This document shows, in pieces, positions 1 to 53,675 of a stretch of DNA of 64,000 bases. This stretch comes from Burkholderiales bacterium (GTDB lineage: Bacteria > Pseudomonadota > Gammaproteobacteria > Burkholderiales > SG8-39). Made by a program: the position numbers and the translations under genes. How positions within the stretch are numbered: position 1 is the stretch's first letter; the number at the start of each line of letters is the position of its first letter. Under the pieces are notes generated by a model that saw only the letters and a program-made list of their open reading frames with translations, searched no databases and was not told where the DNA came from. The stretch lies in the NCBI GenBank assembly GCA_965279075.1, contig CBDIHI010000009.1, forward strand, positions 217,275 to 281,274, given 5' to 3'.

Positions 1-490
1 CACGCACCACATGGCGGCGGAACTCTTCAAGACCATGACCGGCACTTTCATCACCCATATCCCGTATCGCGGCGCCGGCCCGATGATGCTCGACCTGCTC
101 GCCGGCCAGGTCGACCTGGCGTTCGATGGCATGGGGACCTCGTCCTCGCAGATCAAGGGCGGCAAGCTGCGCGGCCTGGCCGTGACCAGCGCGCAACGCA
201 ACCCGGTCCTGCCCGATGTGCCGACGGTGATCGAGGCCGGGGTGCCGGGCTACGAAGTGCGCACCTGGTACGGCATCTGGGTGCTGAAGGGCACGCCGGC
301 GGACATCAAGAACAAGCTGTATGCGGAAACGGTGAAGGCCATGGACCACCCCGACCTGAAGAAGATCTGGGCGGACCAGGGCGCCACGGCGGGCGGCATG
401 CCGCCTGCGGAAATGGAAAAGCTCGTGCGCACCGAAATCGTGAAGTGGGCCAAGGTAGTCAAGGACGCAGGCGCCAAGGTGGACAACTGA
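1..490 (+). CDS. Bug/TctC-family periplasmic solute receptor (tripartite tricarboxylate transporter type), C-terminal part; 5' end lies outside the window
   Basis: The ORF is open to the window edge. The translation ([25 protein letters not shown]...[25 protein letters not shown]) matches the conserved C-terminal half of Bug/TctC receptors. Confidence 0.8.
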
Positions 491-514
491 TCGCAGCCTT
501 GCCTGCGCCGCGCG

Positions 515-550
515 AAAAGAGGCCGCCGAACTTCGCGGCCTTTTTTCTTC
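515..550 (+). terminator. Rho-independent terminator after the Bug-family gene
   Basis: AAAAGAGGCCGC-CGAACTTC-GCGGCCTTTTTTCTT: GC stem at 521-526/535-540 followed by a T6 run, 25 nt after the stop codon. Confidence 0.65.
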
Positions 551-557
551 CCGTCCG

Positions 558-1277
558 GTGACGCGGGCGGACTCCCCGGGACGCGGGGCTTACTTCCAGG
601 GACTGCGGCACGCTACTGGCGTCCCGGCCCTGGTCCTCGCCGCCGGATACATCGGCTTCGGGGCACTCGCCGCGGGGCACGGCCTCTCGCTCGCGGGCAC
701 GCTGCTCTCCACCCTCTTGATCTGGGCGCTGCCCGGGCAGTTGATCCTCGTCGAGATGCACACGCTGGGTGCTCCATTCTTCGCGGTGTTGCTGACGGCG
801 GTCTTGTCGGCGACCCGGTTCCTGCCGATGACCGTGATCCTGATGCCGCTGCTGCGAGAGGCGAGGAGCAGCAACGGCTACTACTACGCGGCGGCGCACT
901 TCGTCTCAATGTCGGGATGGGCCTGGGCGATGGCACGCTTTCCGGCCATGCCTGCGGAGCGCAGGCTGGGCTATTTCCTCGGGTTCACCAGCGTGCTGAT
1001 GGCCTCGGCTTGCACGTCCACCCTGCTCGGCTACCTCGCCGGCGACCTGCTGCCGCCGATGGCTAAGCTCGCCTTCGTATTCATGAGTCCGATGTACTTC
1101 CTGCTGCTGCTCGCCGGCGGGCCGAACGATGCGCGCGGTTACCTTGCGATCGTGCTCGGCGCGATCGCCGGACCGCTGCTGCACCTCGTCGCACCGCAGT
1201 GGAGCGTGCTGGCCGCCGGGTTCGTCGGCGGTACCCTCGCCTACGCCGCCCGGCGGGCCTGGCGCACCCGCCGATGA
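558..1277 (+). CDS. azlC: AzlC-family branched-chain amino acid exporter, large subunit
   Basis: 239-aa polytopic membrane protein with an AzlC-like sequence. Its stop overlaps the next start (ATGA), the classic azlC-azlD pairing. The GTG start at 558 is uncertain. Confidence 0.75.
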   Translation: MTRADSPGRGAYFQGLRHATGVPALVLAAGYIGFGALAAGHGLSLAGTLLSTLLIWALPGQLILVEMHTLGAPFFAVLLTAVLSATRFLPMTVILMPLLREARSSNGYYYAAAHFVSMSGWAWAMARFPAMPAERRLGYFLGFTSVLMASACTSTLLGYLAGDLLPPMAKLAFVFMSPMYFLLLLAGGPNDARGYLAIVLGAIAGPLLHLVAPQWSVLAAGFVGGTLAYAARRAWRTRR

Positions 1278-1600
1278 CCGAATTCACGCTGCTGTCGATC
1301 GCCTGCGGACTCGGGACCTACCTCTGGCGAGGCCTGGGTGTCGCGATCTCCGCGCGCATCCGGCCCGAGAGCGAACTGTTCGCATGGATCGGCTGCGTTG
1401 CGTACGCGATGCTCGCCGGCCTCATCAGCCGCGTGATCCTGATGCCCTCGGGCGCGCTCGAGCATACGGCACTGTGGCAGCGGCTGGCGGCCACGGGGAT
1501 CGCGCTGCTCGCCTACCTGCTGCTGACGAGGAAGAACCTCTTTGCCGGAGTCATGGCCAGCGCGGCGGCCATGTACGCGATCCTGCTGTTGTCGACCTAG
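1274..1600 (+). CDS. azlD: AzlD-family branched-chain amino acid transport protein, small subunit
   Basis: 108-aa hydrophobic protein. Its ATG at 1274 overlaps the azlC TGA (ATGA). The longer 1199 start gives an Arg-rich, non-protein-like extension. Confidence 0.75.
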   Translation: MTEFTLLSIACGLGTYLWRGLGVAISARIRPESELFAWIGCVAYAMLAGLISRVILMPSGALEHTALWQRLAATGIALLAYLLLTRKNLFAGVMASAAAMYAILLLST

Positions 1601-1675
1601 ATGCGGTCGACCTGGATGCGGTCGACCTGGATGCGGTCGACCTGGATGCGGTCGGCCTGGATGCGGTCGGCCTAG
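1586..1675. repeat. 15-bp tandem repeat, 6 units (consensus ATGCGGTCGACCTGG)
   Basis: Five full units occupy 1601-1675; the last two carry GTCGGCC. A degenerate unit 0 (1586-1600, 11/15 identity) forms the azlD 3' end. The array fills the whole azlD/CoA-transferase intergenic gap. Confidence 0.95.
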
Positions 1676-2895
1676 AGGATCCCGCCGGAGCGCAGCGCCG
1701 CGATCTCGGCTTCGTTCTTGCCCAGCAGCGCTTTGAGGATTTCTTCGGTGTGCTGGCCGACGAGCGGCGGCGGCAGCTTGTACTCCACCGGCGTGGCCGA
1801 GAAGCGCATCGGGCTGGCCACCGTCGAGAGCGTGCCCGCCACGGGGTGGTCCATCTCGACGCGGATGCCGCGCGCCTTCACCTGCGGTTCCTCGTACACC
1901 TGCGCCAGAGTGTTGATCGGCCCGTTGGGCACGCCTGCGGCCTCCAGCACTTCGACCCACTCGCGCGTGGTGCGCTTCGAGAAGACCTCCTGCAGCAGGC
2001 GGGTCAGTTCGACGCGGTTCTCGACGCGCTTGCCGTTGGCGGCAAAGCGCGGATCGTCGACGTACTGCGGGCACCCGGCCGCGTCGCAGAACTTGCGGTA
2101 CAGGTTGTCGTTGCCGCAGGCGAGGATCACGTCGCCATCGGACGTCTTGAACGGCTGGTAGGGCACGATGTTCGGGTGCAGGTTGCCGATGCGCTTCGGC
2201 GGCACGCCGGTCGAGAAGTAGTTGGTGTTCTGGTAGGCGAGCAGCGCGATCTGGGAGTCGAGCAGGGCGAGGTCGAGGTGCTGGCCGACGCCGGTCTCGG
2301 CGCGATGCGCGAGGGCCGCGCAGATCGCGATCGACGCGTACATTCCGGTGATGATGTCCGCCACCGGCACACCCGCGCGCTGCGGCCCGCCGCCCGGCGC
2401 GCCGTCGGGCTCGCCCGTGACGCTCATCATGCCGCCCATGCCCTGCACCATGAAGTCGTAGCCCGGGTGTTCGCGGTACGGCCCGGTCTGGCCAAAGCCG
2501 GTGACCGAGCAGTAGATCAGGCGCGGGTTCACGGCCTTGAGGTCCTCGTAGCCGAGGCCGTAGCGCGCAAGGTCACCGAACTTGTAGTTTTCGATCAGCA
2601 CGTCGCTGACCTTCGCCAGTTCCCGGACGATGGCCTGGCCCTCGGGCTTGGAGAGGTTCAAGGAAACCGACTTCTTGCCGCGGTTCGCGGCGGTGAAATA
2701 CGCCGAGTCACGCGTCTCCTTGCCGTCCTTGTCCTTGACCCAGGGCGGGCCGAACGCACGCGAGTCGTCGCCGATCTTCGGCCGCTCGACCTTGATGACT
2801 TCCGCGCCGAGGTCGGCCATGTTCTGCCCGGCCCAGGGCCCGGCGAGCACGCGGGACAGGTCGAGTACGCGGATATGGGAAAGGGGTCCGGCCAT
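1672..2895 (-). CDS. Family III CoA-transferase (CaiB/BaiF type)
   Basis: 407 aa. The N-terminus HIRVLDLSRVLAGPWAGQNMADLGAEVIKVERP is the hallmark of CaiB/BaiF/formyl-CoA-transferase family members. Confidence 0.85.
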   Translation of the reverse strand: MAGPLSHIRVLDLSRVLAGPWAGQNMADLGAEVIKVERPKIGDDSRAFGPPWVKDKDGKETRDSAYFTAANRGKKSVSLNLSKPEGQAIVRELAKVSDVLIENYKFGDLARYGLGYEDLKAVNPRLIYCSVTGFGQTGPYREHPGYDFMVQGMGGMMSVTGEPDGAPGGGPQRAGVPVADIITGMYASIAICAALAHRAETGVGQHLDLALLDSQIALLAYQNTNYFSTGVPPKRIGNLHPNIVPYQPFKTSDGDVILACGNDNLYRKFCDAAGCPQYVDDPRFAANGKRVENRVELTRLLQEVFSKRTTREWVEVLEAAGVPNGPINTLAQVYEEPQVKARGIRVEMDHPVAGTLSTVASPMRFSATPVEYKLPPPLVGQHTEEILKALLGKNEAEIAALRSGGIL

Positions 2896-2971
2896 GGGAT
2901 ACGAGTCCTTGCTTTGTTCTGGTCAGGCCGGGATTATCCGCGAAATCCGCCGCGCGGGGCCGCGGACGGGC

Positions 2972-4258
2972 TCAGGATTTCGCGCTCGCCGGCGGCCTGG
3001 CGCGCAGCAGGTTGCGAACCTGGCGGGAGGCAGCGATCTCGCCGTTGTGGGCGAAGTCCTCGTGGTTCTTCTCGATGTCGTCGAGGTCGTACAGGTAGTT
3101 GACCATGAACCCCGCCGCCTCGCGCAGGCCCTTGGGGGAGACATCCCCGAGCCAGTTGACACGCTCAAGCCGCGCCCCGTTGTTCAGGTGGAAGCGGGAC
3201 ACCGGGTCACGCGGCTTGCCGGACGAATGCTTGGCCGAAAGCAGGTAAGCCCCGATCGCGCGCATGAGCGCCGGCTGCACTGCCTTGCAGGCCTCGGGGG
3301 AGCGGTGCCAATCCGGCTGCGCCAACGCCTTGAGGGAATCGACCTCCGCAGCGACGAGGGCGGACTTCGCATCGCGCTGCAGCCACTGCCCGAATCCCGG
3401 GACCGGCGACAACGTGACGAAGGTCTTGAGGTGGGGCAGGTCGCGCCGCAGCTCGTCGACCACCTGCTTGATGAGGAAATTCCCGAACGAGACGCCCTGC
3501 AGGCCCGCCTGGCAGTTGGAGATTGAATAGAAGACCGCAGTGGTCGCGCGCTCCGGATCGATCGGTGAACGCGACGAGGCAAGCAGCGGCGCGATTGCCT
3601 CCGGGATGCCGCGGGTAAGGGCCACCTCGACGAAGATCAGCGGCTCGTCCGCCAGCGCCGGGTGGAAGAAGGCGAAGCACTTGCGGTCGGGTGGGTCGAG
3701 CCGCGCCCGCAGCTCGGTCCACCCGTTGATCTCGTGCACGGCCTCGTACTGGATGATCTTTTCGAGGATCGCCGCGGGCGTCGACCAGTCGATGTGGCGC
3801 ACGACGAGGAAGCCCCGGTTGAACCAGGACACGAACAGGTGCCGGAAGTCCGCGTCGATGAGCTTCAGTTCCGGGTGCCGGGCAAGGTTCTCCAGCACGT
3901 CCTCGCGCATCCGCACCAGCACGGCGGTCCCGCCCGGGGCCAGGTTCAGCCGTCGCAGGAACTCCTGCAGTCGAGGCTCAGCGGCCTCGTGAAGCTGGCG
4001 TGCGAGGTCCGGGCCGGGGTCGGCGACATACTTGCGGATCGCCTGGTCGATCTTCTTCGGGTCCGGGCCGAAACGCTGCGCCAGCAACTGCAGGAACTGC
4101 AACTTCACTTCAGGCGTCGCGGCGGCGTATGCGCCCAGCACCTCACGCGCAAGCGCGACGCCGGACGCCTCGCCACGCTCCGAAAGCAGGGCTTCCGCCA
4201 GCGCGCCGAGCTCGTCCTTGCGTGAGGAAAACAGGGTGCGCAGGAATCGCGGGGCCAT
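2972..4258 (-). CDS. Malonyl-CoA decarboxylase
   Basis: 428 aa. The C-terminal region (SPVPGF...FHLNNGARLERVNWLGDVSPKGLREAAGFMVNYLY) is characteristic of the MCD family. Confidence 0.8.
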   Translation of the reverse strand: MAPRFLRTLFSSRKDELGALAEALLSERGEASGVALAREVLGAYAAATPEVKLQFLQLLAQRFGPDPKKIDQAIRKYVADPGPDLARQLHEAAEPRLQEFLRRLNLAPGGTAVLVRMREDVLENLARHPELKLIDADFRHLFVSWFNRGFLVVRHIDWSTPAAILEKIIQYEAVHEINGWTELRARLDPPDRKCFAFFHPALADEPLIFVEVALTRGIPEAIAPLLASSRSPIDPERATTAVFYSISNCQAGLQGVSFGNFLIKQVVDELRRDLPHLKTFVTLSPVPGFGQWLQRDAKSALVAAEVDSLKALAQPDWHRSPEACKAVQPALMRAIGAYLLSAKHSSGKPRDPVSRFHLNNGARLERVNWLGDVSPKGLREAAGFMVNYLYDLDDIEKNHEDFAHNGEIAASRQVRNLLRARPPASAKS

Positions 4259-4309
4259 CCCGCTAATCTACCTCAGCCTCGCGCGGAATGCGCCGGTCCG
4301 GCGCGGACT

Positions 4310-4771
4310 TTATTTGACCTTGAGGTCGTTCTGCACCTGCCGGACGCCCGATACGGCCCCCGCGATCTTGCCTGCGGTCTCGGCCTGCGCCTTGCCGTCG
4401 ACGAAGCCGGACAGTTGCACCCGGCCCTCGTAGGTCTCCACCGAGATCGCGGTCGAAGGAATGCCCTTGGCGATGAGGAGCTCGCCTTTCACCTTGGTGG
4501 TGATGACGCTGTCGGCAGCGACCCGCTTGTCGTTGTCCTGCATCGCCTTCAGGTACTCCGCCTCGGAAAGCTTGCCGTCCTTGTTCGCGTCGAATTTCGC
4601 GAATCGCTTGGCGAGTTCCTTCTCCCCGGCCGCTTCGTCGCGGCCGATCCCGCCGTCCGAATTCTTGTCGAGGGCTGCGAAGGCCTGGTTCTTCTCGTCC
4701 TTGGCAATGGCCGGCTGGGCGGTCATCGCACACACGGAAAGCACTGCCAGGACTGCGAGGGTTGCGCGCAT
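4310..4771 (-). CDS. Secreted EF-hand pair + BON domain protein
   Basis: ATG at 4771 is preceded by AAGGAG. Signal peptide MRATLAVLAVLSVCAMTAQPAIA. Two canonical EF loops (DKNSDGGIGRDE, DANKDGKLSEAE). C-terminal BON-like segment (VKGELL...VETYEGRVQLSGFVD...VRQVQNDLKV). Confidence 0.75.
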   Translation of the reverse strand: MRATLAVLAVLSVCAMTAQPAIAKDEKNQAFAALDKNSDGGIGRDEAAGEKELAKRFAKFDANKDGKLSEAEYLKAMQDNDKRVAADSVITTKVKGELLIAKGIPSTAISVETYEGRVQLSGFVDGKAQAETAGKIAGAVSGVRQVQNDLKVK

Positions 4772-4883
4772 GTCGATCTCCTTGGTACTTGTATCAGCGA
4801 GATTGAAGCCTATGGCCTGGCCCGCCGGCGCGGTAAGGAAAGAATTCACGCCGGTAACGGGCGAAACTGTCGCCGCAGCCCGA

Positions 4884-5642
4884 CTACAGGTGGTACCAAT
4901 GCAGCACGCGGCGCTCGATCGCAAGGAAGCCGCGGTTCAACCCGTAGCCGAGCGCGGCAAGCAGGAAGATCGCGGCATACATGTCGCCCGCCCGCATGGC
5001 GTATTGCATTGTCATGATGTAGTAGCCGATACCGGACGAGCCGGCGATCATCTCTGCGACCACGGTGACGATCAGCGCGAGGGCAAGGCTCACGCGCATG
5101 CCGGCGAGGATGTAGGGCATGCTCGCCGGCAACACCACGCGCAACGCCGTGCGCATCCTGCCGACGCGAAAAGTGCGGGCGGCGTCGAGGGTCACGTGGT
5201 CCACCGCGCGCACGCCGGCGATCGTATTGACGAGCACCGGGAAGAAAGCAGAAAACGCCACAATGAAGATCTTCATGGCGTCGTCCACCCCCAGCAACAG
5301 GATGAGCGGCGGGATGATCGCGGGGACCGGGATCGGACGCAGCAATTCGACCATCGGTTCCAGCGCGGCGTGCACTACACGCACGCTGGCCATGAGCAAC
5401 CCGATGACAAGGGCCGCGCCCACGCCGAGCGCATAGCCCGAAAGCATGCGATAGAGGCTCGAACCGAACACTTCGGGGAGTTCGCCGGAGGCGAGTCCGG
5501 CAACAAGCGCCCGGGCGATCTGCGTGACCGGCGGCCAGTTGGGGCTCGTCACCCAGTAGTACGCCGAGTACTGCCACAGGCCCAGGAGCAGCACGATCAG
5601 GAAGGCGCCGCTCGCCCGCGTGCCTGAGAGCCGCCCGAGCAC
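4884..5642 (-). CDS. ABC transporter permease (NitT/TauT family), second permease of the operon
   Basis: Binding-protein-dependent permease signature with the EAA-type loop (LDAARTFRVGRMRTALRVVLPASMPYILAGMRV). The GTG at 5642 sits just after the upstream stop. The part of the ORF upstream of 5642 overlaps the amidohydrolase gene and looks non-coding. Confidence 0.8.
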   Translation of the reverse strand: MLGRLSGTRASGAFLIVLLLGLWQYSAYYWVTSPNWPPVTQIARALVAGLASGELPEVFGSSLYRMLSGYALGVGAALVIGLLMASVRVVHAALEPMVELLRPIPVPAIIPPLILLLGVDDAMKIFIVAFSAFFPVLVNTIAGVRAVDHVTLDAARTFRVGRMRTALRVVLPASMPYILAGMRVSLALALIVTVVAEMIAGSSGIGYYIMTMQYAMRAGDMYAAIFLLAALGYGLNRGFLAIERRVLHWYHL

Positions 5643-5643
5643 G

Positions 5644-7269
5644 TCAGCCGCCGTGCACCAGCGCGCCGCCGACTGCGGTAGCCTGCACGCCCGCCTCGCG
5701 CAGCGCCTCCGCGTCGCACTCGACCGGATCGACCGACAGTGCCGTCCAGTCGCCGAGCAGGCCCGGGCGCAGCACCCCGCGCTCGTGCTCACTGAAGCTG
5801 ACGTAGGCGGCGTCGCGCGTGTACATCGCGAGGGCTTCAGCGCCGCTCACCGCCTGCTCGCGCCCCAACGGCTCCTCCGCGCCCGCGATGTGCCGGGTGC
5901 GCGCCTGCCACAGGCCAAGGAGAGGCGGGAAGGGCGTGATCGGTGAATCGGAGCCGCCGCCAACCGTCACGCCACCGTCCAACCAGCCGCGCACCGGTGT
6001 CGCCATCGACATCAGCACGGCGCCGAAACGCTTCAGCAGCACCGGGCCGAACGAATACTGCATAGAGGGCTGGGTTGCGACCACGACCCCGAGCCTCGCG
6101 GCGCGCGCGATGTTCTCCCGGCTCGGCCAGAGATAGGCGTGGATGAGGCAGAAGCGCAGGCCTCGAATCGGATGTTCACGGTCGATCTCGGCGAACACCT
6201 CGAGTGCGATGTCGATCGCCTTGCCGCCGACGACGTGCACACCCATCGACCAGCCCCGTTGCGCGCAGAGGCGGGCGATCCGCCGGAACGATTCGGTGGG
6301 CGTCACCTGGATCCCGCAGTTGCATTTTTCGTCGGGGAAAGGCTCTCGCATCAGCGCAGTGCCGAACGTTGCCGCGCCGTCGAAGAAGACTTTTACCCCC
6401 CCCAGCTTCAGGCGGGCGTCGCCGAATCCGGTTCGCGCCGGGCTCGAAGCAATCCCGTCGAGCACGTCCTCGAGAGGGCGGCTCGAATCCGCAAGCGGCA
6501 TGACTACCGACCGCATGCTGAGTTCGCCCGCCGACCAAAGCGCCTGGTAGATGCCGATGACCTCGGGAGTGAGGCCCGGGTCCATGATCCCGGTCAGGCC
6601 GGCGGCATGGTAGAGCTTCTGCACTTCGCGCAGCGACTGCCGCTGGTCTGCCTCGGAGGACGCCGGCACGTGGCGCCCGACGAGCTCGAACGCGGGAGGC
6701 TCGAGAAGCACGCCATTCGGCTCCCCGGAGGCATCGCGCTCGATTCTTCCGCCCTCAGGATCAGGTGTGCCGCGCGTGACTCCCGCACGTGCGAGTGCGA
6801 GGGAATTCACTGCGGCGGAATGACCGCCGCGGGGCAGGTATACGGGCCGGTCCGCACAAGCGCCATCGAGCTCCTCGCGGGTCGGGTGCCGGCCTTCCTG
6901 GAGGTTGGATACGTGCCATCCAGTCCCGCACACGATCCATTCCGCCTCCGGATTGCGCCCGGCATAGGCGCGAACCTCCGCAAGGATCCCGGCGATGCTT
7001 TTGCACCGGGTGAGGTCGACGAGACGCTGCTGCATCCCCGTCCAGAACATGTGGTTGTGCGTGTCGATGAGGCCAGGCACGATCGCGCCGCCGTCAAACC
7101 CGATTTCGCGCGCGGCGGGGCCTGCGGCCGCGCGCGCCTCGGCCACGCTGCCGACCGCGACGATGCGCCCGGCGCGGATGGCCATCGCTTCCGCGCGCGG
7201 GCGTTTCGGGTCCATCGTAACGATGTTCCCGCGCACCAGCTGGTCCCCGCCGGAGGCAGGTGCCGTCAC
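5644..7269 (-). CDS. Amidohydrolase-3 (YtcJ-like) metal-dependent hydrolase
   Basis: 541 aa. N-terminal VPGLIDTHNHMFWTG metal-binding motif with a C-terminal GSDSP region. The GTG start overlaps the SBP stop (GTGA). Confidence 0.8.
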   Translation of the reverse strand: MTAPASGGDQLVRGNIVTMDPKRPRAEAMAIRAGRIVAVGSVAEARAAAGPAAREIGFDGGAIVPGLIDTHNHMFWTGMQQRLVDLTRCKSIAGILAEVRAYAGRNPEAEWIVCGTGWHVSNLQEGRHPTREELDGACADRPVYLPRGGHSAAVNSLALARAGVTRGTPDPEGGRIERDASGEPNGVLLEPPAFELVGRHVPASSEADQRQSLREVQKLYHAAGLTGIMDPGLTPEVIGIYQALWSAGELSMRSVVMPLADSSRPLEDVLDGIASSPARTGFGDARLKLGGVKVFFDGAATFGTALMREPFPDEKCNCGIQVTPTESFRRIARLCAQRGWSMGVHVVGGKAIDIALEVFAEIDREHPIRGLRFCLIHAYLWPSRENIARAARLGVVVATQPSMQYSFGPVLLKRFGAVLMSMATPVRGWLDGGVTVGGGSDSPITPFPPLLGLWQARTRHIAGAEEPLGREQAVSGAEALAMYTRDAAYVSFSEHERGVLRPGLLGDWTALSVDPVECDAEALREAGVQATAVGGALVHGG

Positions 7270-26595: not shown

Positions 26596-27735
26596 ATGAA
26601 GATCGTCGATGTCATCACCCACCAGCTCTCGTGCGATGTCGAGAAGCCTTTCACCTCCTCGCGCGGCTGGTGGTACAAAACCAAGGGGGCGCTGGTGGTC
26701 GAGGTGGTCACCGACGAAGGGATCATCGGATGGGGCGACTGCTACGGCCCCTCGGCGGTCGCCAAAAGCGTTGTGGACTCCCTGCTAAAGCCATCAGTAA
26801 TCGGACGCGACCCGTTCGACGTCGAGGTCATCTGGGAGACCCTTTACAACAAGGTGAAGGATTACGGCCTGACCGGGATGACCATCTCCGGGATCAGCGG
26901 GATAGACATCGCCCTTTGGGACATCATCGGCAAGGCCACCGGGAAGCCGATCCACAAGCTGATCGGCGGTGCATTCCGTACCGACCTCACGGCCTACGCT
27001 ACGGGCCTGTACTTCACCGACATGAACCGGCTGACCGAGACGGCGGTAGAGGAGGCCATTGGGTACAAAGAGCAGGGGTTCCCGGCCGTGAAGATGAAGA
27101 TCGGGCTCGGCTCAATGAAGAAGGACCTCGACCGGATCGCCGCGGTTCGCGACGCCATCGGCCCGGACATGCTGCTGATGGTCGACGCCAACCACTGCTA
27201 CAACGTGCCCCAGGCCATCCAGATCGGTCGGGAGATGGAAAAACTGGGCATCCACTGGTTCGAGGAACCCGTGTCCCCCGAGGACCTGGACGGGTACGCC
27301 GAGGTCTCCCAAGCGCTCGACATGCAGGTCGCCGGCGGGGAGAACGAATTCACCAAGTTCAGCTTCCGCGAGATCATCAACCGCCGCGCAATGGACATCG
27401 TCCAGCCCGACGTCTGCGCGGCCGGCGGCATTACCGAGTGCAAGAAGATCGCCACCCTGGCCCAGGCGCACTGGGTCCAATGCGTGCCGCACGCTTGGGG
27501 AACGGCCATTGGCCTCACTGCGACGATGCACTTTCTGGCCTCGCTGCCGGAGTGCCCGCCCTGCCTCGTTCCGCAGCCCCCCATGCTCGAGTACGAGCAG
27601 ACCTACAACCCGTTCCGCGAAGAACTCGGCGGCGACGTGTTCAGCCACAAGAACGGTATCGTGAAGGTGCCGGGCGGGCCCGGCCTCGGGATCGAGATCA
27701 ACCGCGACATCCTGAAGCGCTACAAGGTCGCCTGA
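26596..27735 (+). CDS. Enolase-superfamily enzyme (mandelate racemase / muconate lactonizing enzyme family; acid-sugar dehydratase-like)
   Basis: ATG at 26596 with GGAG 9 nt upstream. MR/MLE motifs VKMKIG, MVDANHCY, FEEP, AGGE, HAWG. The upstream 63 codons of the 442-aa ORF cover the parS region and look non-coding. Confidence 0.85.
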   Translation: MKIVDVITHQLSCDVEKPFTSSRGWWYKTKGALVVEVVTDEGIIGWGDCYGPSAVAKSVVDSLLKPSVIGRDPFDVEVIWETLYNKVKDYGLTGMTISGISGIDIALWDIIGKATGKPIHKLIGGAFRTDLTAYATGLYFTDMNRLTETAVEEAIGYKEQGFPAVKMKIGLGSMKKDLDRIAAVRDAIGPDMLLMVDANHCYNVPQAIQIGREMEKLGIHWFEEPVSPEDLDGYAEVSQALDMQVAGGENEFTKFSFREIINRRAMDIVQPDVCAAGGITECKKIATLAQAHWVQCVPHAWGTAIGLTATMHFLASLPECPPCLVPQPPMLEYEQTYNPFREELGGDVFSHKNGIVKVPGGPGLGIEINRDILKRYKVA

Positions 27736-27762
27736 GTATTGCTCGGGCAGTGAATGCACATG

Positions 27763-27788
27763 CCAAAAACGGAAATAACATTTCCGTT
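27763..27788 (-). terminator. Candidate Rho-independent terminator downstream of the kinase gene
   Basis: 9-bp stem AACGGAAAT/ATTTCCGTT (27768-27788) with a 3-nt loop. On the minus strand it runs into TTTTTGG. The surrounding patch is AT-rich. Confidence 0.45.
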
Positions 27789-27865
27789 AGCGCGGCTTCA
27801 GGAGCCGACTTTCCTAAACTAAAGATTGACTTTGTTGCGCGGGCCGGCCGGCCTGCGCGACCGGC

Positions 27866-30406
27866 TCAGCGCTGCCGCGCCCGCTCGACCTTGACCCCGT
27901 TCTTTTCGGCGAGCGTGTAGTAGCGCAGAGACTCGCCGTAGTCCTTCGGCACGTCGCCCTTGCCCTCGACGTATATGTCGCCAAGCGCCTTGGCGGCCTC
28001 GAAATTGCCGTCCCTGATTGCGCGCGAGTAAAGCCGCACGGCGAGCTTGATGTTTCCGGCGGCCTCCGCCGCCCTCGCCTGCTCGAAATTCGACGGCGCG
28101 GCCGCCACTGCGGTCGGTGCGGCGGAAGCAACCTGTGTATTGCCCCCGGCGGTACTGGCCCCGGGTGCGGGTGCGACTGTGGCCGCCTGCGCAGGCGCTT
28201 CGGCAGGTGCACCTGACTTGGCGGCCCGCTCCCTCTCCAGCCGGTCAGCCCGCTCGGCCAACGTCTCCGTCTTGCGGTCGACCTTCGCGGCCGGCGCAGG
28301 TGCGGGTGCAGGCGCCGCCTTCGGTGCAGCAGCGACAGGTGCGGCAGCGGCAGCCTTGGCTTGGCGATCGGCTTCGGCTTTCTCGGCAGCAACGCGGTCA
28401 GCCTCCGCCTTGGCGCTCGCGTTCCTTTCAGCAGCGGATTTGTCGGCAGCGGCCTTCTCGGCGGCGACTTTGTCGGCAGCCGCCTTCTCCGCATCAGCCT
28501 TCTTCTGCGCGTCAGTCTTTTCCTTGGCCTTTTCGGCCGCGTTCTTCTTGTCTTCCGCGGCCTTCAGGGCGGCCTTGGATTCAGCATCGCGCTGCTTGAC
28601 CAGATCGGCCTGTTTGGCGAGCTCGGCCTCCTTCTTCGCGGTCTCTTCCGCGAGGCGCTTCTGCTCGGCTATGTCGCCACGGGCCTTCGCGGCCTCTTCC
28701 GCCGCCTTCGCATCAGCCACCGCCTTCTGCGCCTGAACCTCGGCTTCACGGGCCTGGTTCAACGCCTCGTTGGCCTTCTTGGCTTGGTCGAGGGCGGCCA
28801 TGAGTTCCTTCATCTCCGGCGCCGGTGCCGGCTTGAAGATGTACCAGCCGCCGAGTCCGAGCGCGACGACCAGCAAGCCAATGCCCGCAGGAACCAGAGG
28901 GGATCCCTTTTTCTTGCGGATCTCCTTGGTCAGATAATCGGTTTCCGCAGCTTTCTTGGCGAGGGCCTCCTCGTTCTTCTTGAGCTCTTCCTCCTGCTTC
29001 TTCAGCTGGACCTGAAGGTCGGCCTCGCGCTTGGCGAGCTTGGCCTCGAACTCGGCTTTCTCCTTGGCTTCCTGTTCGGCGCGGACCTTCGCCTCGGCCT
29101 GGCGCTGGGCCTCGATTTCGGCCGTGCGCTTCTTGTACTCTTCCTCGCGCTTGACGAGTTCAGCCTCGAGCTTGGCCTTCTCCTCGGCGAGCTTGGCCTT
29201 GACCTCGGCCTCGCGGCGGGCAGCTTCCTCGAGTTCGCGCTTCTCCTGCTCGGCGGCCTGGAGCCCCTTGCTGGTGGTCTCCTCACTGGCGACCCCGCGC
29301 AGCTTGGCGCTCTTCCTCTTTGCCAGGGCGGCATAAATGCCGTCCGGGAATTGCTTCACGTAGAGGTCGAAGTCGTCGGCGTCGTTCCCATCCTTGATCG
29401 AACGCCAGAATTCGAGCTCGACTTCCTGGGTTCCCATGGCGCCCGACTGGGAGCCCGTCCCTGCGGCGGGGGCTGCGGCGATGGCCGCAGGCGGCAGCGG
29501 CGCGTCAAACCGGAGCGAGCCCACCACCGTCTTCTCGGTGTCGTCGCCGGGCGCCTTGCCTTCGAGCGCGTTCTTGAGGTCGGTGCCGAGATCCCGCGCG
29601 CTTTGGTACCGCGCGTTCATGTTCTTCGCGAGCGCCTTGGCGATCACCGCGTCGAAAATGGGGGAGATGTTCGTATTGAGCTTGGACGGCATCACCGGCT
29701 CGTCCTGGAGGATCTTCTTTGCGATCGTCCAGGTGCTTGTGCCGGTGAACGGCTTCTCGCCGGTAAGGAACTGGTAAAGGATGATGCCAGCCGAGAAAAT
29801 GTCCGTGCGGCGGTCGATTTCCCCGCCCTCGATCTGCTCGGGCGACATGTAGGCCGGGGTGCCGACGATCGCGCCGGCCTGGGTCTTTTCCGAGGCGGAG
29901 CGGTCAGCATCGGTGATCCGCGCCACACCGAAGTCGGCCAGCTTCACACGGCCCTTGTTGTCGATCATCACGTTCGCGGGCTTGATGTCCCGGTGGATGA
30001 TCCCCGCTTCGTGCGCGAAGTGGAGTGCCTCGCACAACTCGCCCATGATGTGGACGGCTTCCTTGATGTCGAAGCGCTCGTTCGCGTCGAAGAAGTCCTT
30101 GAGCTCCTTGCCCTGGATGAACTCCATCACGATGTACGCGACGTCACCCTCGGCGCCGAAGTCGTACACCTGCACGATGTTGGGATGGTTCAGCCGCGCG
30201 ACCGCCTGGGCCTCGCGGTCGAAGCGCATCGTGTATTCCTTGGCAGTATCCTCATCCAGGGCGCTCTTGAGAATCGTCTTGATCGCGACCTTGCGGTGCA
30301 ACCGCGGGTCCATGCCCGCATAGACGACACCCATGGCGCCCTTGCCCAGGACACTCACGATGTCGTAGCGCCCGAGGCGCTTTATGTCAGATCCGGCTGT
30401 CGACAT
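27866..30406 (-). CDS. Membrane-spanning Hanks-type Ser/Thr protein kinase with coiled-coil, low-complexity and C-terminal Sel1-like repeat regions
   Basis: 846 aa. Kinase motifs GKGAMGVV, VAIK, HRDIKPAN, DFG, TPAYMSPE (residues ~14-280). One TM at ~503-524 (LVPAGIGLLVVALGLGGWYIF). Lys/Ala/Glu-rich segments on both sides of the TM. C-terminal Sel1-type repeat (AAKALGDIYVEGKGDVPKDYGESLRYYTLAEKNG). Confidence 0.85.
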   Translation of the reverse strand: MSTAGSDIKRLGRYDIVSVLGKGAMGVVYAGMDPRLHRKVAIKTILKSALDEDTAKEYTMRFDREAQAVARLNHPNIVQVYDFGAEGDVAYIVMEFIQGKELKDFFDANERFDIKEAVHIMGELCEALHFAHEAGIIHRDIKPANVMIDNKGRVKLADFGVARITDADRSASEKTQAGAIVGTPAYMSPEQIEGGEIDRRTDIFSAGIILYQFLTGEKPFTGTSTWTIAKKILQDEPVMPSKLNTNISPIFDAVIAKALAKNMNARYQSARDLGTDLKNALEGKAPGDDTEKTVVGSLRFDAPLPPAAIAAAPAAGTGSQSGAMGTQEVELEFWRSIKDGNDADDFDLYVKQFPDGIYAALAKRKSAKLRGVASEETTSKGLQAAEQEKRELEEAARREAEVKAKLAEEKAKLEAELVKREEEYKKRTAEIEAQRQAEAKVRAEQEAKEKAEFEAKLAKREADLQVQLKKQEEELKKNEEALAKKAAETDYLTKEIRKKKGSPLVPAGIGLLVVALGLGGWYIFKPAPAPEMKELMAALDQAKKANEALNQAREAEVQAQKAVADAKAAEEAAKARGDIAEQKRLAEETAKKEAELAKQADLVKQRDAESKAALKAAEDKKNAAEKAKEKTDAQKKADAEKAAADKVAAEKAAADKSAAERNASAKAEADRVAAEKAEADRQAKAAAAAPVAAAPKAAPAPAPAPAAKVDRKTETLAERADRLERERAAKSGAPAEAPAQAATVAPAPGASTAGGNTQVASAAPTAVAAAPSNFEQARAAEAAGNIKLAVRLYSRAIRDGNFEAAKALGDIYVEGKGDVPKDYGESLRYYTLAEKNGVKVERARQR

Positions 30407-30586: not shown

Positions 30587-31495
30587 TTATTCCGCTGCGG
30601 CGCGTTTCGCTGCCTCCCGCACCTCGATCGCCATGTGCCGCGCGAGCAGGCCCTCGGCCCGGGAAACCACCGGGAGGTCGATCATTTTCCGGTCCAGGGC
30701 GAACGAACCCCGCCCGACTGCGGCGGCCCTGACGCTCTCTTCCACGATCCGGCGGGCATAGGCGACTTCCTCGACGGCCGGCGAATACTCCTCGTTCACG
30801 ATCGGCACCTGCCCCGGATGGATACAGCCGGCGCCCATGAATCCGAACTGCCGGGAGCGCCGCACCATGGCCCGGAATGCCGCCCAGTCGCCGAAACCAG
30901 CCACGCTGGCGATGAAGCCCAGCGGCATCAGCCCGGCCGAGCAGGCCGCGAAGACCATTTGCTGCTTGGGCATCTGCAGCGCCTCTTCCGAGGGGGCCAT
31001 GCCGTTCTCAAGCGCAAAATCCTCGCCCCCGATATTCATCGCGGCAAGCCGCCCCACGGCACCTGCGATGTCCGCCATACGAAAAAAAGCAGCCGGGGTC
31101 TCGATCATCGCGATAAAGCGGGTATGGCCGGCAGGCAAGCCGCGCTTCAACTCGAGTTCCGCGACCAGTTCGTCTAGCAGGCGCAGGTGGTCGGCCCCTT
31201 GGACCTTGGTGACGGCGATGCCGTTCACGTCCGGGCCGATCGAAGCCTCGAGGTCCCGCACCGCCATCGACAGCGGGCGGTTGATGCGCACCACGACATC
31301 CGCCCCGCCTCGCCGAACGCGCGCCGCCACGGCGGGCACCAGCGTGCGGGCACGGTCCTTCTCGGCAGGGGATACGCTGTCCTCAAGGTCGACCTGGATG
31401 CAGTCGGCTCCGCGGGTATGGGCCTTGTCGACGTACTTCTCCACATTGACAGGGACGTACAGCAGCGAGCGCCATACAGGGAGGCCATCCTTCAT
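30587..31495 (-). CDS. HpcH/HpaI-CitE family acyl-CoA lyase (citryl/malyl/citramalyl-CoA lyase-like)
   Basis: 302 aa. N-terminus RSLLYVPVNVEKYVDKA...DCIQVDLEDSV and the GGEDF motif typical of CitE-like lyases. Its ATG overlaps the upstream CoA-transferase stop (ATGA). Confidence 0.8.
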   Translation of the reverse strand: MKDGLPVWRSLLYVPVNVEKYVDKAHTRGADCIQVDLEDSVSPAEKDRARTLVPAVAARVRRGGADVVVRINRPLSMAVRDLEASIGPDVNGIAVTKVQGADHLRLLDELVAELELKRGLPAGHTRFIAMIETPAAFFRMADIAGAVGRLAAMNIGGEDFALENGMAPSEEALQMPKQQMVFAACSAGLMPLGFIASVAGFGDWAAFRAMVRRSRQFGFMGAGCIHPGQVPIVNEEYSPAVEEVAYARRIVEESVRAAAVGRGSFALDRKMIDLPVVSRAEGLLARHMAIEVREAAKRAAAE

Positions 31496-37507: not shown

Positions 37508-38851
37508 CTAGGCGGCAAGCGCTTCCGGCACGCCCAGCGTCGCAGACAGCGCAGCCGAAAATTTCGCCACCAGTTCGTCGAGCTGCGCCTCCTCTACGAT
37601 GAAAGGCGGCGCGAACAACACGTGATCCCCCTGCACGCCGTCAAGCGTCCCGCCCATCGGATAGCACATCAGACCGGATTCGAGCGCGGCCTTCTTCAGC
37701 CTGACATTCACCTTGAGAGCCGGGTCGAAGGGCTTCTTCGTCGCACGGTCTTCCACCAGCTCCACCGCCTGGAACAGCCCGCGGCCGCGGATGTCTCCTA
37801 CATGGGGATGTCGCCCGAACGCCGCCCTCAGCTTGCGATCGAGGGCCGCGCCTATCGAGCCGACACGTTCGAGCAAACCGTCCTCATTGAGCCTCTTCTG
37901 GACGGCGAGCGCGCCTGCGCATGCCGCCGCGTGGCCCAGGTACGTATGGCCGTGCTGGAAGAAGCCGCTGCCGGCGACGATGGCGTCGTAGACCTTGCTG
38001 CTCGCGATCACCGCACCGATCGGCTGGTAGCCGGCACCCAGTCCCTTGGCAATGCAGACGAGGTCGGGCACCACACCCTCCTGCTCGAACGTGAAGAGGG
38101 TCCCGCACCGGCCCATGCCGCACATCACCTCGTCGAGGATCAGCAGCACGCCGTACTTGTCGCAGATTTCCCTCACCCGCTTGAAATATCCGGGCACCGG
38201 CGTCACCGCGCCCAGCGTTGCGCCCACTACCGTCTCGGCGACGAACGCAATCACCTTGTCGGCGCCCAGGCGCAGGATCTCCGCTTCGAGTTCGGCCGCC
38301 AGCCGCGTGGCATAGGCGTCGTCGCCTTCGCCCGCCTCCTTGCCGCGATACTCGAAGCAGGGCGACACATGGGCGACGTCGATCAGCAACGGCTCGAACT
38401 GCTTGCGACGCCAGGCGTTTCCGCCGACCGCAAGCGCGCCGAGCGTGTTGCCGTGGTAACTGCCGCGTCGCGCGATGATGTGCTCGCGCTGCGGCTCGCC
38501 TTTCTCGACACAATACTGCCGCGCGAGCTTCAGCGCGGCTTCCACGGCCTCGGAGCCGCCCGAAACGAAGTAGACCCGGTCGAACTCCGATGGAGAACGG
38601 CGGATCAACTCGTCAGCGAGCGCTTCCATCGGCTCGTTGGAGAAAAACGAGGTGTGCGCGAAAGGCAGGCGGTCGAGCTGGGCCTTGATCGCGTCGATGA
38701 CGGCCCGGTCCGAATGCCCCAGACAGGAGACCGCGGCACCGCCCGAAGCGTCGAGGTATCGCTTTCCCTCGCGGTCTACCAGGTAGGCGCCGTCGCCGCG
38801 AACCGCGACGGGATAGTCGTTCTTCGGAGTGCGATGGAAGACGTGGCTCAT
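37508..38851 (-). CDS. Class III (omega) PLP-dependent aminotransferase
   Basis: ATG at 38851. Motifs LDASGGAAVSCLGH, YFVSGGSEAVEAALKLAR, LILDEVMCGMGRCG, and the CIAKGLGAGYQP lysine motif. Confidence 0.85.
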   Translation of the reverse strand: MSHVFHRTPKNDYPVAVRGDGAYLVDREGKRYLDASGGAAVSCLGHSDRAVIDAIKAQLDRLPFAHTSFFSNEPMEALADELIRRSPSEFDRVYFVSGGSEAVEAALKLARQYCVEKGEPQREHIIARRGSYHGNTLGALAVGGNAWRRKQFEPLLIDVAHVSPCFEYRGKEAGEGDDAYATRLAAELEAEILRLGADKVIAFVAETVVGATLGAVTPVPGYFKRVREICDKYGVLLILDEVMCGMGRCGTLFTFEQEGVVPDLVCIAKGLGAGYQPIGAVIASSKVYDAIVAGSGFFQHGHTYLGHAAACAGALAVQKRLNEDGLLERVGSIGAALDRKLRAAFGRHPHVGDIRGRGLFQAVELVEDRATKKPFDPALKVNVRLKKAALESGLMCYPMGGTLDGVQGDHVLFAPPFIVEEAQLDELVAKFSAALSATLGVPEALAA

Positions 38852-47438: not shown

Positions 47439-50982
<3,544 letters not shown>

Positions 50983-50986
50983 CCAG

Positions 50987-51009
50987 GACGGGGGCGTATC
51001 AGCCCCGTC
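50987..51009. terminator. GC-rich hairpin between convergent gyrB and topB (possible bidirectional terminator; no U-tract)
   Basis: GACGGGG(GC)-GTATCA-(G)CCCCGTC, lying 5 nt after the gyrB stop and 12 nt before the topB stop. Confidence 0.35.
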
Positions 51010-51020
51010 GCGCGCTCCCG

Positions 51021-53675
51021 CTAGGCGGCGCGCTTCCTGGCCTTGGCCGGTGCCTTGGCCTTGGCAGCCGGTTTGCTGGTCGCTCGCGCCGGCTTCGTCT
51101 TTGCCGCCGCCTTCTTCAGCGGCACCACGGGAGTTTCTTCTTTCTTGGCCGCCTTCGTCTTCGCCGCTGCCCTCTTCTTCAACGGCACGACTTCGGCCTC
51201 TTCGCGGACCGCGCCGTCCTTTCCCGCCGGGGCACCGGGCTTCGCCGGGCGCGCCTGGAATTCGAAACCGATCTTGCCGCCGGGCGTCTTCACCAGGAAG
51301 GCCTTGAAAGGCCGGCCCTTCTTCGAGATGAAACGGTTCAGCAGGTCGGTCTTGCCGCTGGCCAGCAGCTTCTCCATCTGCTCTCGCTCGATCTGTTGCT
51401 GCAGGATGATCTTGCCGGAGCGGAAATCGCATGTGCGCGGCGATCCAACGGCTTTCTCGCAGACATAGGCCATACCCGAGTCGTAGACGCGCGATCCGCA
51501 CTTGGGGCAGGCGCCCAGCGGCTGCTGCGCGCTGAAGTCCGGCGCCTCGCCGCCCTCGTCCTCCGGACGAGCCTGGCCGAAATCGAATTCGATCCTCTGT
51601 TCGTCGTTGAGCTTCAGCACGGCGGCGAACGGCCGGCCCATGCGGCTCCTGAAGCCGGTCAGCGGGCCGATGGTGCGCTTGGTGATCAGCTCGGCGACCT
51701 CCTCGGCCGCCCACTCGCGGCCCGAGATCACCTTCCACAGGTTGAAGTCGCAGGCCTGGCACTGGAACTTTCGGTAGTTTTCCTGGATCACGCCGCCGCA
51801 TTTCGGGCAGGGTGCCTCCACCGTCGCGAATGCGGTATCGGGGATGTCGCCGTTCTTGATCCGCGCCACCATGTCGCGCGTCACGGACTCGATATGCTCC
51901 ATGAATTCATCGCGCTTGAGCTTGCCCTGCTCCATCTGCTTGAGCTTGAATTCCCAGTCGCCGGTAAGCTCCGGGGAGGTTATCTCGGAAACCGCGAAGT
52001 GCTTGAGTGCGAACAGCAGCGAGAACGCCTTTGGCGTGGGCACCAGCTCGCGGGCGTTCCGGTGCAAGTACTCTTCCCTCAACAGGCCCTCGATCACCGC
52101 GGCACGGGTAGCCGGCGTGCCGAGGCCCTTCTGGCCCATGGCCTCGCGCAGGTCGTCGTCCTCGAGCAACTTGCCGGCCCCCTCCATCGCGGAGAGCAGC
52201 GTCGCCTCGCTGTAGCGCGCCGGGGGCCTGGTCTGGTTGGCGACTGCCTGGACTTCAAGCGCCTTCACCTTCTCGTCGGGCGCGACTGCGGGCAGGTTCT
52301 CGTTTTCCTCCTGCGTGGCCTTGCCGTAGACGGTCAGCCAACCGGGGCTCTTGAGGATACGGCCCTCGGTCTTGAACTTGTGGCCGGACACGTCGGTGAT
52401 GCGGGTGGTTTGCAGGTGTTCGGCCGGCGGATAGAACACCGCGAGGAAGCGCCGCACCACCAGGTCATAGAGTTTCTGCTCGGGCTCCGACAGGCTCTTG
52501 GGCGCCTGCAGCGTCGGGATGATCGCGAAGTGGTCCGAGATCTTGCTGTTGTCGAAGATGCGCTTGTTCGGCTTGACCCAGCCGCTTTTGAGGATCTGGG
52601 CGGCATACGTGACGTATGAGCCCTCCTTCAGCATGTCGAGCGTCTTCTTCACCGTCGGGACATAGTCTTCGGGCAACGCGCGCGCGTCGGTACGCGGGTA
52701 GGTCAGGACCTTGTGCTTCTCATACAGGGCCTGAGCGAGACCCAGCGTGTTCTTGGCCGAGAAGCCGAAGCGGCCGTTGGCCTCGCGTTGCAGGCTCGTG
52801 AGGTCGAAGAGCAGCGGGGACATCTGTGTCGAAGGCTTGGTTTCCTCGGTGACCGTGCCGGTCCCGCCTTCGCAGGCTGCGCGGATTGCCTCGGCCTTCG
52901 CCGCCTCCCAGAGGCGCTCGGCCTTCTTCTCGCCGTCTTCCTGTTTCTTCCAGTCGGTATCGAACCAGCGGCCGGAATACTCGCCCGCAGCCGCGCCGAA
53001 GCGGGCATGCACCTCCCAGTAGTCGCGCGGCCTGAAGGCGCGGATCTTTTCTTCGCGCTCTACGAGGATCGCCAGCGTAGGCGTCTGCACACGGCCGACG
53101 GTCGTCAGGTAGAAGCCGCCTTCCTTCGAGTTGAACGCGGTCATCGCGCGCGTGCCGTTGATGCCCACGAGCCAGTCGGCCTCCGACCTCGATTTGGCGG
53201 CATCGGCCAGCGCGAGCATGTCGCGGTCCGCGCGCAGCTTCTCGAAGCCTTCGCGGATCGCCGTCTGCGTCATCGACTGCAGCCACAGGCGTTCGATCGG
53301 CTTCTTGGTCTTCGCGTGCTGAACGATGTAGCGGAAAATCAGCTCGCCCTCACGGCCCGCGTCGCAGGCGTTCACCAACGCGTCCACGTCCTTGCGCTTG
53401 ATCAGCTTTAGCAGGACGTTCAGCCGGGGTTCGCTGCGCTCGATCGGCCGCAGGTCGAAATGCGGCGGGATGACGGGCAGGTTGGTAAACGACCACTTGC
53501 CCTTCTTGACGTCGTGCGACTCAGGCAGCGTGAGTTCCAGCAGGTGGCCGACCGCGGACGAGATGACCAACTCGTCGCTCTCGAACCAGTCGCTGTGCTT
53601 CGTGAAGCCGCCGAGCGCTTTTGCGATGTCGGATGCGACCGAAGGTTTCTCGGCAATGATGAGCTTCTTGCCCAC
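51021..53675 (-). CDS. topB: Type IA DNA topoisomerase, topoisomerase III-like, with C-terminal zinc ribbons and a Lys/Ala-rich tail
   Basis: IIAEKPSVA, GHLLEL and the active-site region LTYPRTDARALPEDY resemble Topo III. CPKCGG...CQAC and CPKCGS...C...C zinc-ribbon motifs. The GTG at 53675 gives MGKKLIIAEKPS; the ATG at 53741 is the alternative start. Confidence 0.85.
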   Translation of the reverse strand: MGKKLIIAEKPSVASDIAKALGGFTKHSDWFESDELVISSAVGHLLELTLPESHDVKKGKWSFTNLPVIPPHFDLRPIERSEPRLNVLLKLIKRKDVDALVNACDAGREGELIFRYIVQHAKTKKPIERLWLQSMTQTAIREGFEKLRADRDMLALADAAKSRSEADWLVGINGTRAMTAFNSKEGGFYLTTVGRVQTPTLAILVEREEKIRAFRPRDYWEVHARFGAAAGEYSGRWFDTDWKKQEDGEKKAERLWEAAKAEAIRAACEGGTGTVTEETKPSTQMSPLLFDLTSLQREANGRFGFSAKNTLGLAQALYEKHKVLTYPRTDARALPEDYVPTVKKTLDMLKEGSYVTYAAQILKSGWVKPNKRIFDNSKISDHFAIIPTLQAPKSLSEPEQKLYDLVVRRFLAVFYPPAEHLQTTRITDVSGHKFKTEGRILKSPGWLTVYGKATQEENENLPAVAPDEKVKALEVQAVANQTRPPARYSEATLLSAMEGAGKLLEDDDLREAMGQKGLGTPATRAAVIEGLLREEYLHRNARELVPTPKAFSLLFALKHFAVSEITSPELTGDWEFKLKQMEQGKLKRDEFMEHIESVTRDMVARIKNGDIPDTAFATVEAPCPKCGGVIQENYRKFQCQACDFNLWKVISGREWAAEEVAELITKRTIGPLTGFRSRMGRPFAAVLKLNDEQRIEFDFGQARPEDEGGEAPDFSAQQPLGACPKCGSRVYDSGMAYVCEKAVGSPRTCDFRSGKIILQQQIEREQMEKLLASGKTDLLNRFISKKGRPFKAFLVKTPGGKIGFEFQARPAKPGAPAGKDGAVREEAEVVPLKKRAAAKTKAAKKEETPVVPLKKAAAKTKPARATSKPAAKAKAPAKARKRAA

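Follow-up and report, generated by a model that had tools for sequence, protein, structure and literature searches.

How does a tandem repeat come to fill exactly the space between two convergent genes, with a stop codon at each edge and open reading frames throughout? The question is raised by the junction of azlD and a CaiB/BaiF family-III CoA-transferase gene in a stretch of 64,000 nucleotides from a Burkholderiales bacterium (contig CBDIHI010000009.1; the whole 64-kb stretch is called the window below). Direct reading of positions 1200-2100 showed that a 15-bp array, made of five full units and one degenerate coding unit, fills 1586-1675. Our data suggest that this array is a lineage-specific minisatellite at an ancestral 4-nt stop-stop overlap, most likely without a dedicated function, and we consider this reading probable. 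The features of the junction are as follows.

1274-1600, plus strand: azlD (PF05437; 108 aa, ending in L-S-T-TAG; exact match to protein P0001)
1672-2895, minus strand: CaiB/BaiF family-III CoA-transferase gene (PF02515; 407 aa)
1586-1600, plus strand: unit 0, CTGTTGTCGACCTAG, degenerate (11/15 matches to the consensus), forming the 3' coding end of azlD (L-S-T-stop)
1601-1645: three A-type units, ATGCGGTCGACCTGG, identical over 45 nt
1646-1660: unit ATGCGGTCGGCCTGG
1661-1675: unit ATGCGGTCGGCCTAG
1601-1675: block of the five full 15-bp units (75 nt), missing from every sampled relative
1597-1600: left CTAG cap, in which TAG at 1598-1600 is the azlD stop
1672-1675: right CTAG cap, providing the minus-strand stop of the CoA-transferase gene (CTA at 1672-1674)

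The intergenic gap (1601-1671, 71 nt) consists of the array throughout, and the final 10 nt of unit 0 (GTCGACCTAG) lie in the same register. Along the array, the unit variants follow the order A,A,A,A,G,G at one position and TAG, TGG x4, TAG at the other. Placement of the 75-nt block is ambiguous by rotation (1594-1668 would serve as well). Tandem Repeats Finder reported 1591-1673 with a period of 15, 5.5 copies, 97% matches and a score of 145, the maximum in the window, where the runner-up scored 72. Near-identical units arranged head to tail, with a unit length in the range of ~10-100 bp, are what is expected of a minisatellite. A weak 15-nt periodicity reaching back to 1563 (62%) was judged to be an effect of overlapping registers.

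The two caps have GTCGRCCTAG in common. Because 75 = 25 x 3, each CTAG cap is in frame with the stop of the other gene. A 24-codon open reading frame (ORF) occupies 1601-1675, with its ATG directly abutting the azlD stop. An earlier note on this DNA had described an array that fills the whole gap, six unit positions with unit 0 at 11/15 and encoding LST*, caps that are in frame both ways, and the small ORF. Direct reading bore out all of these, and Tandem Repeats Finder agreed on the extent of the array.

The junction in related lineages

In 21 loci from nine related lineages, we observed an overlap of exactly 4 nt between azlD and the CoA-transferase gene. Seven lineages were reached via AzlD (77-90% identity) and two via the CoA-transferase (94% identity). 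The loci and their overlap tetramers are listed here.

AzlD 90% identity: L001-6, CTAG
AzlD 89% identity: L007-10, CTAA
AzlD 84% identity: L011-14, TTAG
AzlD 80% identity: L041 and L042, CTAA
AzlD 77% identity: L043, CTAG, and one locus recorded without DNA
CoA-transferase 94% identity: L034 and L035, CTAG

Gene order was kept in the nine lineages, with tctC, azlC and azlD followed, on the other strand, by the genes for the CoA-transferase and malonyl-CoA decarboxylase. The outer neighbours of the junction in the window are these.

558-1277, plus strand: azlC (PF03591), whose stop overlaps the azlD start (ATGA coupling)
2972-4258, minus strand: malonyl-CoA decarboxylase gene

In alignment A1, a block of 75 columns was occupied by the window only, and the right cap aligned with the single stop tetramer of the relatives. 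The presence of the array is lineage-specific at an otherwise conserved locus (absent from 21 loci in nine lineages), which is a further property of minisatellites. Convergent 4-nt overlaps of the types CTAG, CTAA, TTAG and TTAA form a known and common class, with CTAG the commonest convergent overlap type at 28% (bioRxiv 10.64898/2026.09.10.750558; PMC2174442). By this sequence comparison, the clade nearest the window had the 4-nt overlap as its ancestral state, into which the array was later inserted.

This history accounts for the arrangement that had seemed designed. The array fills the gap and carries a stop at each edge because an insertion into the shared stop tetramer left both proteins at their native length, and every frame is preserved because the period is 15. 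The earlier note was right that the array is open in the frames of both genes. The openness is not special, since the interior unit can be read without a stop in all six frames, and, of 20,000 random 15-mers made periodic, 86% were open in a pair of such frames and 60% in every frame. These decoys were drawn from the window itself (65% G+C). When an insert with a length divisible by 3 enters a shared CTAG stop, gap filling, palindromic stop caps and preserved frames come as by-products.

The earlier note had also proposed that a cap mutation or a change in unit number could switch the C-terminal tails of the two proteins, and had suggested looking for pentapeptide-repeat tails in orthologues of both. 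The homologues did not support this. A C-terminal repeat tail was absent from all 22 AzlD homologue sequences read, and where AzlD was longer in this set, the extra length was at the N-terminus. AzlD measured 106-118 aa in all 120 matches listed, and its orthologues end at the same position, +/-1 residue. Similarly, no repeat tail was found among the CoA-transferase homologues examined: 118/120 of the closest clusters were exactly 407 aa and 2/120 were 412 aa, and G-[IAV]-L was the C-terminus of every full-length member of the cluster to which the query belongs. In the window, the native end is retained by both proteins. Because stops cap both ends of the array, gain or loss of a unit alters neither protein, and for this reason the array is not a contingency-type switch.

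It is highly improbable that the array is an evolvability or coding device, whether as a reservoir of C-terminal pentapeptide tails or as a 24-aa (MRSTW)n micro-ORF whose translation is coupled to the azlD stop. The frames are indeed open and in phase, the ATG directly abuts the azlD stop, the third-codon positions shared by the units are G or C in 5/5 cases, and AzlD would once have had such a tail under the donor history described in the next section. Set against this are the lack of any homologue with such a tail, the indifference of both stop-capped proteins to unit number, and the six open frames that 60% of random units also offer. The ORF product had no Pfam match, and we saw no Shine-Dalgarno-like purine run upstream of 1601 in the sequence. 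Contingency loci differ as well, given that the period here is a multiple of 3 and that the array lies outside both ORFs.

Origin of the repeat unit

The ancestral junction can supply 10/15 nt of the unit (GTCGRCCTAG), and the linker ATGCG is not derivable from it. A derivation of this linker from internal deletions of the azlD 3' end was dropped, as it needed two ad hoc deletions. When all rotations of the unit were searched in the window, one rotated copy was found outside the array, at 31387.

31387-31408, plus strand: candidate donor GGTCGACCTGGATGCAGTCGGC, matching array positions 1635-1656 in 21/22 nt, same strand
30587-31495, minus strand: citE-like HpcH/HpaI lyase gene, which contains 31387-31408, there encoding A-D-C-I-Q-V-D

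The matching part of the array, 1635-1656, is the junction of units 3 and 4, and the candidate donor lies 29.8 kb from the array. At the protein level, the motif GADCIQ[VLI]DLED was present in 114/120 of the closest citE-like homologues, with near variants in the other 6. Because the A-D-C-I-Q-V-D motif is conserved in homologues, the donor site predates the private array. Periodic decoys made from random 15-mers of the window reached at least 21/22 elsewhere in the window in 10/20,000 and 3/4,000 trials.

We lean towards the view that the first unit was seeded by a templated copy from the citE-like gene, as the sequence match suggests. A 15-nt copy, ACCTGGATGCAGTCG, would have been taken from the A-D-C-I-Q-V-D segment and would have entered the junction TTGTCG/GCCTAGAGG (TTGTCG/GCCTAG, the slash marking the entry point) via the microhomologies GTCG and GTCGGC. 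The product would have held 1.7 periods of a 15-nt repeat. The intermediate of this donor type would read TTGTCGACCTGGATGC(A/G)GTCGGCCTAG, with AzlD longer by 5 aa. Slipped-strand mispairing, aided by hairpins between GGTCGACC palindromes, would then have amplified the unit, so that the present sequence could be reached by a few slippage duplications together with two substitutions, A to G in the linker and TGG to TAG. Selection on both proteins would keep a stop at each native position, and the interior units, being unconstrained, would read CCTGG. In the donor history, the TGG-to-TAG change would have put the left stop back at the earliest codon possible, which would have restored the native end of AzlD. 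A templated copy would explain why the linker is ATGC, why interior units read CCTGG, why A-type units precede G-type ones, and why AzlD ends in Thr. This residue is Thr (ACC) in the window and Ala (GCC) in the nearest relatives with an AzlD of 108 aa.

Two points count against a copied seed. The donor match has a nominal P of ~0.002 after allowing for the 45 distinct 22-mers of the array (three times as many as in the decoys), is post hoc and may be due to chance. Further, we found no intermediate state, either as a single unit or as an AzlD with 5 additional aa.

An alternative for the origin only is a local tandem duplication of GTCGGCCTAG plus 5 flanking nt, which would have doubled the shared CTAG and would make the citE-like match a coincidence. 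The linker and the interior CTAG would have diverged later, possibly through a repair bias from CTAGG to CCAGG like that of very short patch (VSP) repair, and the mutated unit would then have been amplified. Slippage duplication is the commonest source of tandem repeats, and GTCGRCCTAG is common to both caps. The post hoc nature of the donor match also speaks for this origin, as does the composition of the window. CTAG was observed 20 times against 47 expected (ratio 0.42), two of the 20 being the array caps, and CCAG and CTGG were slightly enriched (1.14 and 1.17). CTAG depletion is seen in many bacteria (PMC5337935), and according to that source, which cites Bhagwat and McClelland 1992, VSP repair removes CTAG in enterobacteria. 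The depletion in the window fits interior units that do not keep CTAG.

Local duplication would nonetheless demand at least five substitutions before the recent amplification that left three identical units: at least three in the linker (AGGAT or CTGTT to ATGCG), TAG to TGG, and G to A. It leaves the 21/22 donor match, a level reached in 10/20,000 decoys, without explanation, and no vsr or dcm gene was noticed, although none was searched for. We regard a local origin as possible, and as less probable than a copied seed. The nature of the element is the same whichever way the seed arose.

Hairpins and the 3' ends of the two genes

The units carry the following palindromes.

1605, 1620 and 1635 (span 1605-1642): 8-bp perfect palindromes GGTCGACC, one per A-type unit
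1650 and 1665: imperfect palindromes GGTCGGCC
1590: imperfect palindrome TGTCGACC

Because the A-type units contain the GGTCGACC palindrome, the six units form a long nested hairpin on both strands. The predicted RNA fold had a free energy of -62.2 kcal/mol on the plus strand (z -2.1; 6/200 shuffles as stable) and of -57.5 kcal/mol on the minus strand (z -3.25; 0/200 shuffles as stable). Folding the array only gave z-scores of -1.9 and -3.4. As single-stranded DNA, 1586-1680 folded at -23.9 kcal/mol (z -4.5; 0/200 shuffles as stable). In our view, the main relevance of the hairpin is that it favours slipped-strand amplification.

Compared with an intrinsic terminator, the array has the G+C-rich hairpin and lacks the T-run after the stem. 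Its flanks are AGAGGATCCC and, on the minus strand, GTCGACAACAGC, both without a T-run. A promoter/terminator scan reported 0 terminator-like sites in 1000-2300.

Other hairpins were observed in the window. A canonical intrinsic terminator lies between tctC and azlC at 505-550 (GAGGCCGCC-GAACTTC-GCGGCC, then TTTTTTCTT). The tctC-azlC spacer is absent from L001 and L034, and other hairpins occupy this place in L007 and L011. The convergent junction at 27735-27866 holds two strong stem-loops (z -5.3), one of them with a minus-strand T-run. A third site, the convergent junction at 50982-51021, has a G+C-rich 7-bp stem without a T-run.

Several observations weigh against a minisatellite without function. 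The hairpin is stable on both RNA strands, so that a 3'-end function could have been gained. More distant relatives, in which the two genes do not overlap, have short non-repetitive spacers at the azlD/CoA-transferase junction: L036 has one of 63 nt (2828-2890), and L038 one of 24 nt (2822-2845) with a canonical terminator, GGGGTCAGACCCCGTTTTT. Judged from these sequences, the junction is plastic over long times, and its state changed several times. The array is known from one genome, whereas copy-number variation is a hallmark of minisatellites, and we infer its neutrality from absence of evidence. The source also resembles a metagenome-assembled contig, in which the count of three identical units could be mis-assembled.

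We considered whether the array was gained and kept as a functional two-way RNA hairpin that separates the formerly overlapping genes. By analogy with repetitive extragenic palindromic (REP) elements, such a hairpin could end or pause transcription from both sides, or shield mRNA 3' ends from exonucleases. The nested hairpins on both strands agree with this idea (z -2.1 and -3.25 at -62.2 and -57.5 kcal/mol; z -1.9 and -3.4 for the array alone), as do the G+C-rich hairpin without a T-run at 50982-51021 and the terminator and the 63-nt spacer at the orthologous junctions of L038 and L036. The fold, however, follows automatically from an 8-bp palindrome in a repeated unit. No T-run stands on either side of the array and 1000-2300 had 0 terminator-like sites, while terminators of the canonical hairpin-plus-T-run type are in use elsewhere in the same genome (505-550 and near 27770). 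In nine related lineages a 4-nt overlap suffices, with no spacer, and the array has no homologues, hence no covariation signal to draw on. These data suggest that a functional two-way hairpin is unlikely.

It is very unlikely that errors in assembling a contig from a metagenome produced the array or its copy number. The source is on one contig with no independent assembly, and three units are identical over 45 nt, where a miscount is conceivable at small k. Nevertheless, a typical read is longer than the entire array (90 nt), the succession of variants (A,A,A,A,G,G; TAG, TGG x4, TAG) provides unique anchors, and the flanking genes are intact and collinear with those of relatives.

The locus is a worked example of how an in-frame tandem insertion can undo the shared CTAG stop of convergent genes with both proteins untouched. 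What looks like design (stop caps that are palindromic, a gap filled exactly, frames left open) arises without further cause. Should the donor match be genuine, the array is also an example of a minisatellite whose seed was a short templated copy taken from a coding motif far away. A stronger combination, in which a selected, stop-capped two-way RNA hairpin module un-overlapped the two genes and was built from a coding-motif fragment copied from 30 kb away, seems to us improbable. If true, it would mean that a new 3'-end or insulator element arose from scratch by templated insertion and slippage, along a path passing through a stage with a repeat-encoded AzlD tail. As a minisatellite, the array represents no new class of element, and no phenotype is expected of it.

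Comparison with known elements

The 15-mer at up to two mismatches occurred in the window in the array only, besides one chance match with two mismatches at 38667. At up to three mismatches, there were 11 matches against 3.6 expected (0/100 shuffles reached 11). A dispersed repeat was rejected for the window, as searches with the 15-mer at up to three mismatches and with all its rotations gave only the array and the rotated copy at 31387. We also scanned a 1.5-unit pattern, GGTCGRCCT(G/R)GATGCGGTCGRCC, in 185,579 species-representative genomes, JGI metagenome contigs and IMG/VR viral contigs. The scan returned isolated single matches (10, 9 and 1, respectively) in unrelated and mostly coding contexts, and none of the genome, metagenome or viral matches lay at an azlD locus. 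The exact AzlD and the exact CoA-transferase were found on one contig only in the protein collection, with a length of 431,925 bp. In the window and in these scans, the 15-mer was not a generic dispersed repeat, and by their sequence matches the array is private to one genome among the collections scanned.

Inside a SCO1/SenC-like gene of an unrelated uncultured bacterium (L021, a metagenome-assembled genome), 1300-1345 holds 2.5 in-frame tandem copies of GCGGTCGGCCTGGAT, which equals the G-type 15-mer of the array (local sequence ...DRIQADRIQADRV...). This repeat is probably an independent small duplication. At the start of azlC, 555-608 holds 2.5 copies of a weak tandem repeat with a 21-bp unit (79% matches, score 55). 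Rfam 15 had nothing over the array; its sole match in 1-6000 was a weak Leu_leader (E 0.97) at 461-546, which is merely the terminator hairpin of 505-550.

The junction of the relatives belongs to the class of 4-nt stop-stop overlaps. The window differs in that it has the tetramer twice, 75 nt apart, with one copy per gene. The proposed 15-nt seed, bounded by the microhomologies GTCG and GTCGGC, resembles the products of microhomology-mediated template switching or short-patch ectopic conversion. Compared with templated-insertion systems, the copy is here inferred from one 21/22 match.

CTAG-type targets are typical of some insertion sequence families. The 71-nt insert could be imagined as a small non-autonomous mobile element that entered at CTAG with a 4-bp target-site duplication, similar to a MITE (a miniature transposable element with inverted repeats) or a mycobacterial interspersed repetitive unit (MIRU). 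A CTAG direct repeat flanks the insert when filled and empty sites are compared, and MIRU have this signature: they are tandem intergenic units with open frames and ends that touch the flanking stops, and their filled and empty sites differ by a tetranucleotide direct repeat (PMC3184786). The array shares the tandem arrangement, the open frames, the ends at flanking stops and the direct repeat. We consider the mobile-element reading extremely improbable, because the insert consists of tandem units throughout, lacking a unique core and any terminal inverted repeats other than the unit palindrome, because the similarity of its flanks covers 10 nt (GTCGRCCTAG) and not 4, and because no further copy was found in 64 kb or in the genome, metagenome and viral collections.

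MIRU units measure 40-100 bp, occupy ~40-50 loci per genome and lie between co-directional operon genes. The array, by comparison, has a 15-bp unit at one locus between convergent genes, with no other copy in 64 kb and no array in the collections. Its ORF at 1601-1675 abuts the azlD stop, as in the MIRU arrangement, and there is no downstream start for it to couple to. The MITE reading was rejected: CTAG flanks the insert, but its only inverted repeats are the palindrome of the unit, with no terminal inverted repeats and no other copies. Nor does the array behave as a contingency locus, since it lies outside both ORFs, its period is a multiple of 3, and the scan found no promoter-like site.

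REP elements and bacterial interspersed mosaic elements (BIMEs) have G+C-rich palindromic cores after stop codons, often between convergent genes, and form stem-loops on either transcript. The array shares all of these features, including the palindromic stem-loop. REPs are dispersed in tens to hundreds of copies that alternate in orientation within BIMEs, whereas the array consists of direct repeats at a single locus.

The closest likeness is to bacterial minisatellites, the variable number tandem repeats (VNTRs) used in multiple-locus VNTR analysis (MLVA) typing. These likewise have head-to-tail units of 10-100 bp at a single intergenic locus, and here too the array occurs in one lineage only and slippage-type amplification is plausible. 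What sets it apart from VNTRs is its position exactly at the former stop-stop overlap of two convergent genes, which is unusual and has no evident mechanistic role. The array lacks the defining features of REP/BIME, MIRU and MITE, and it fits a single-locus minisatellite.

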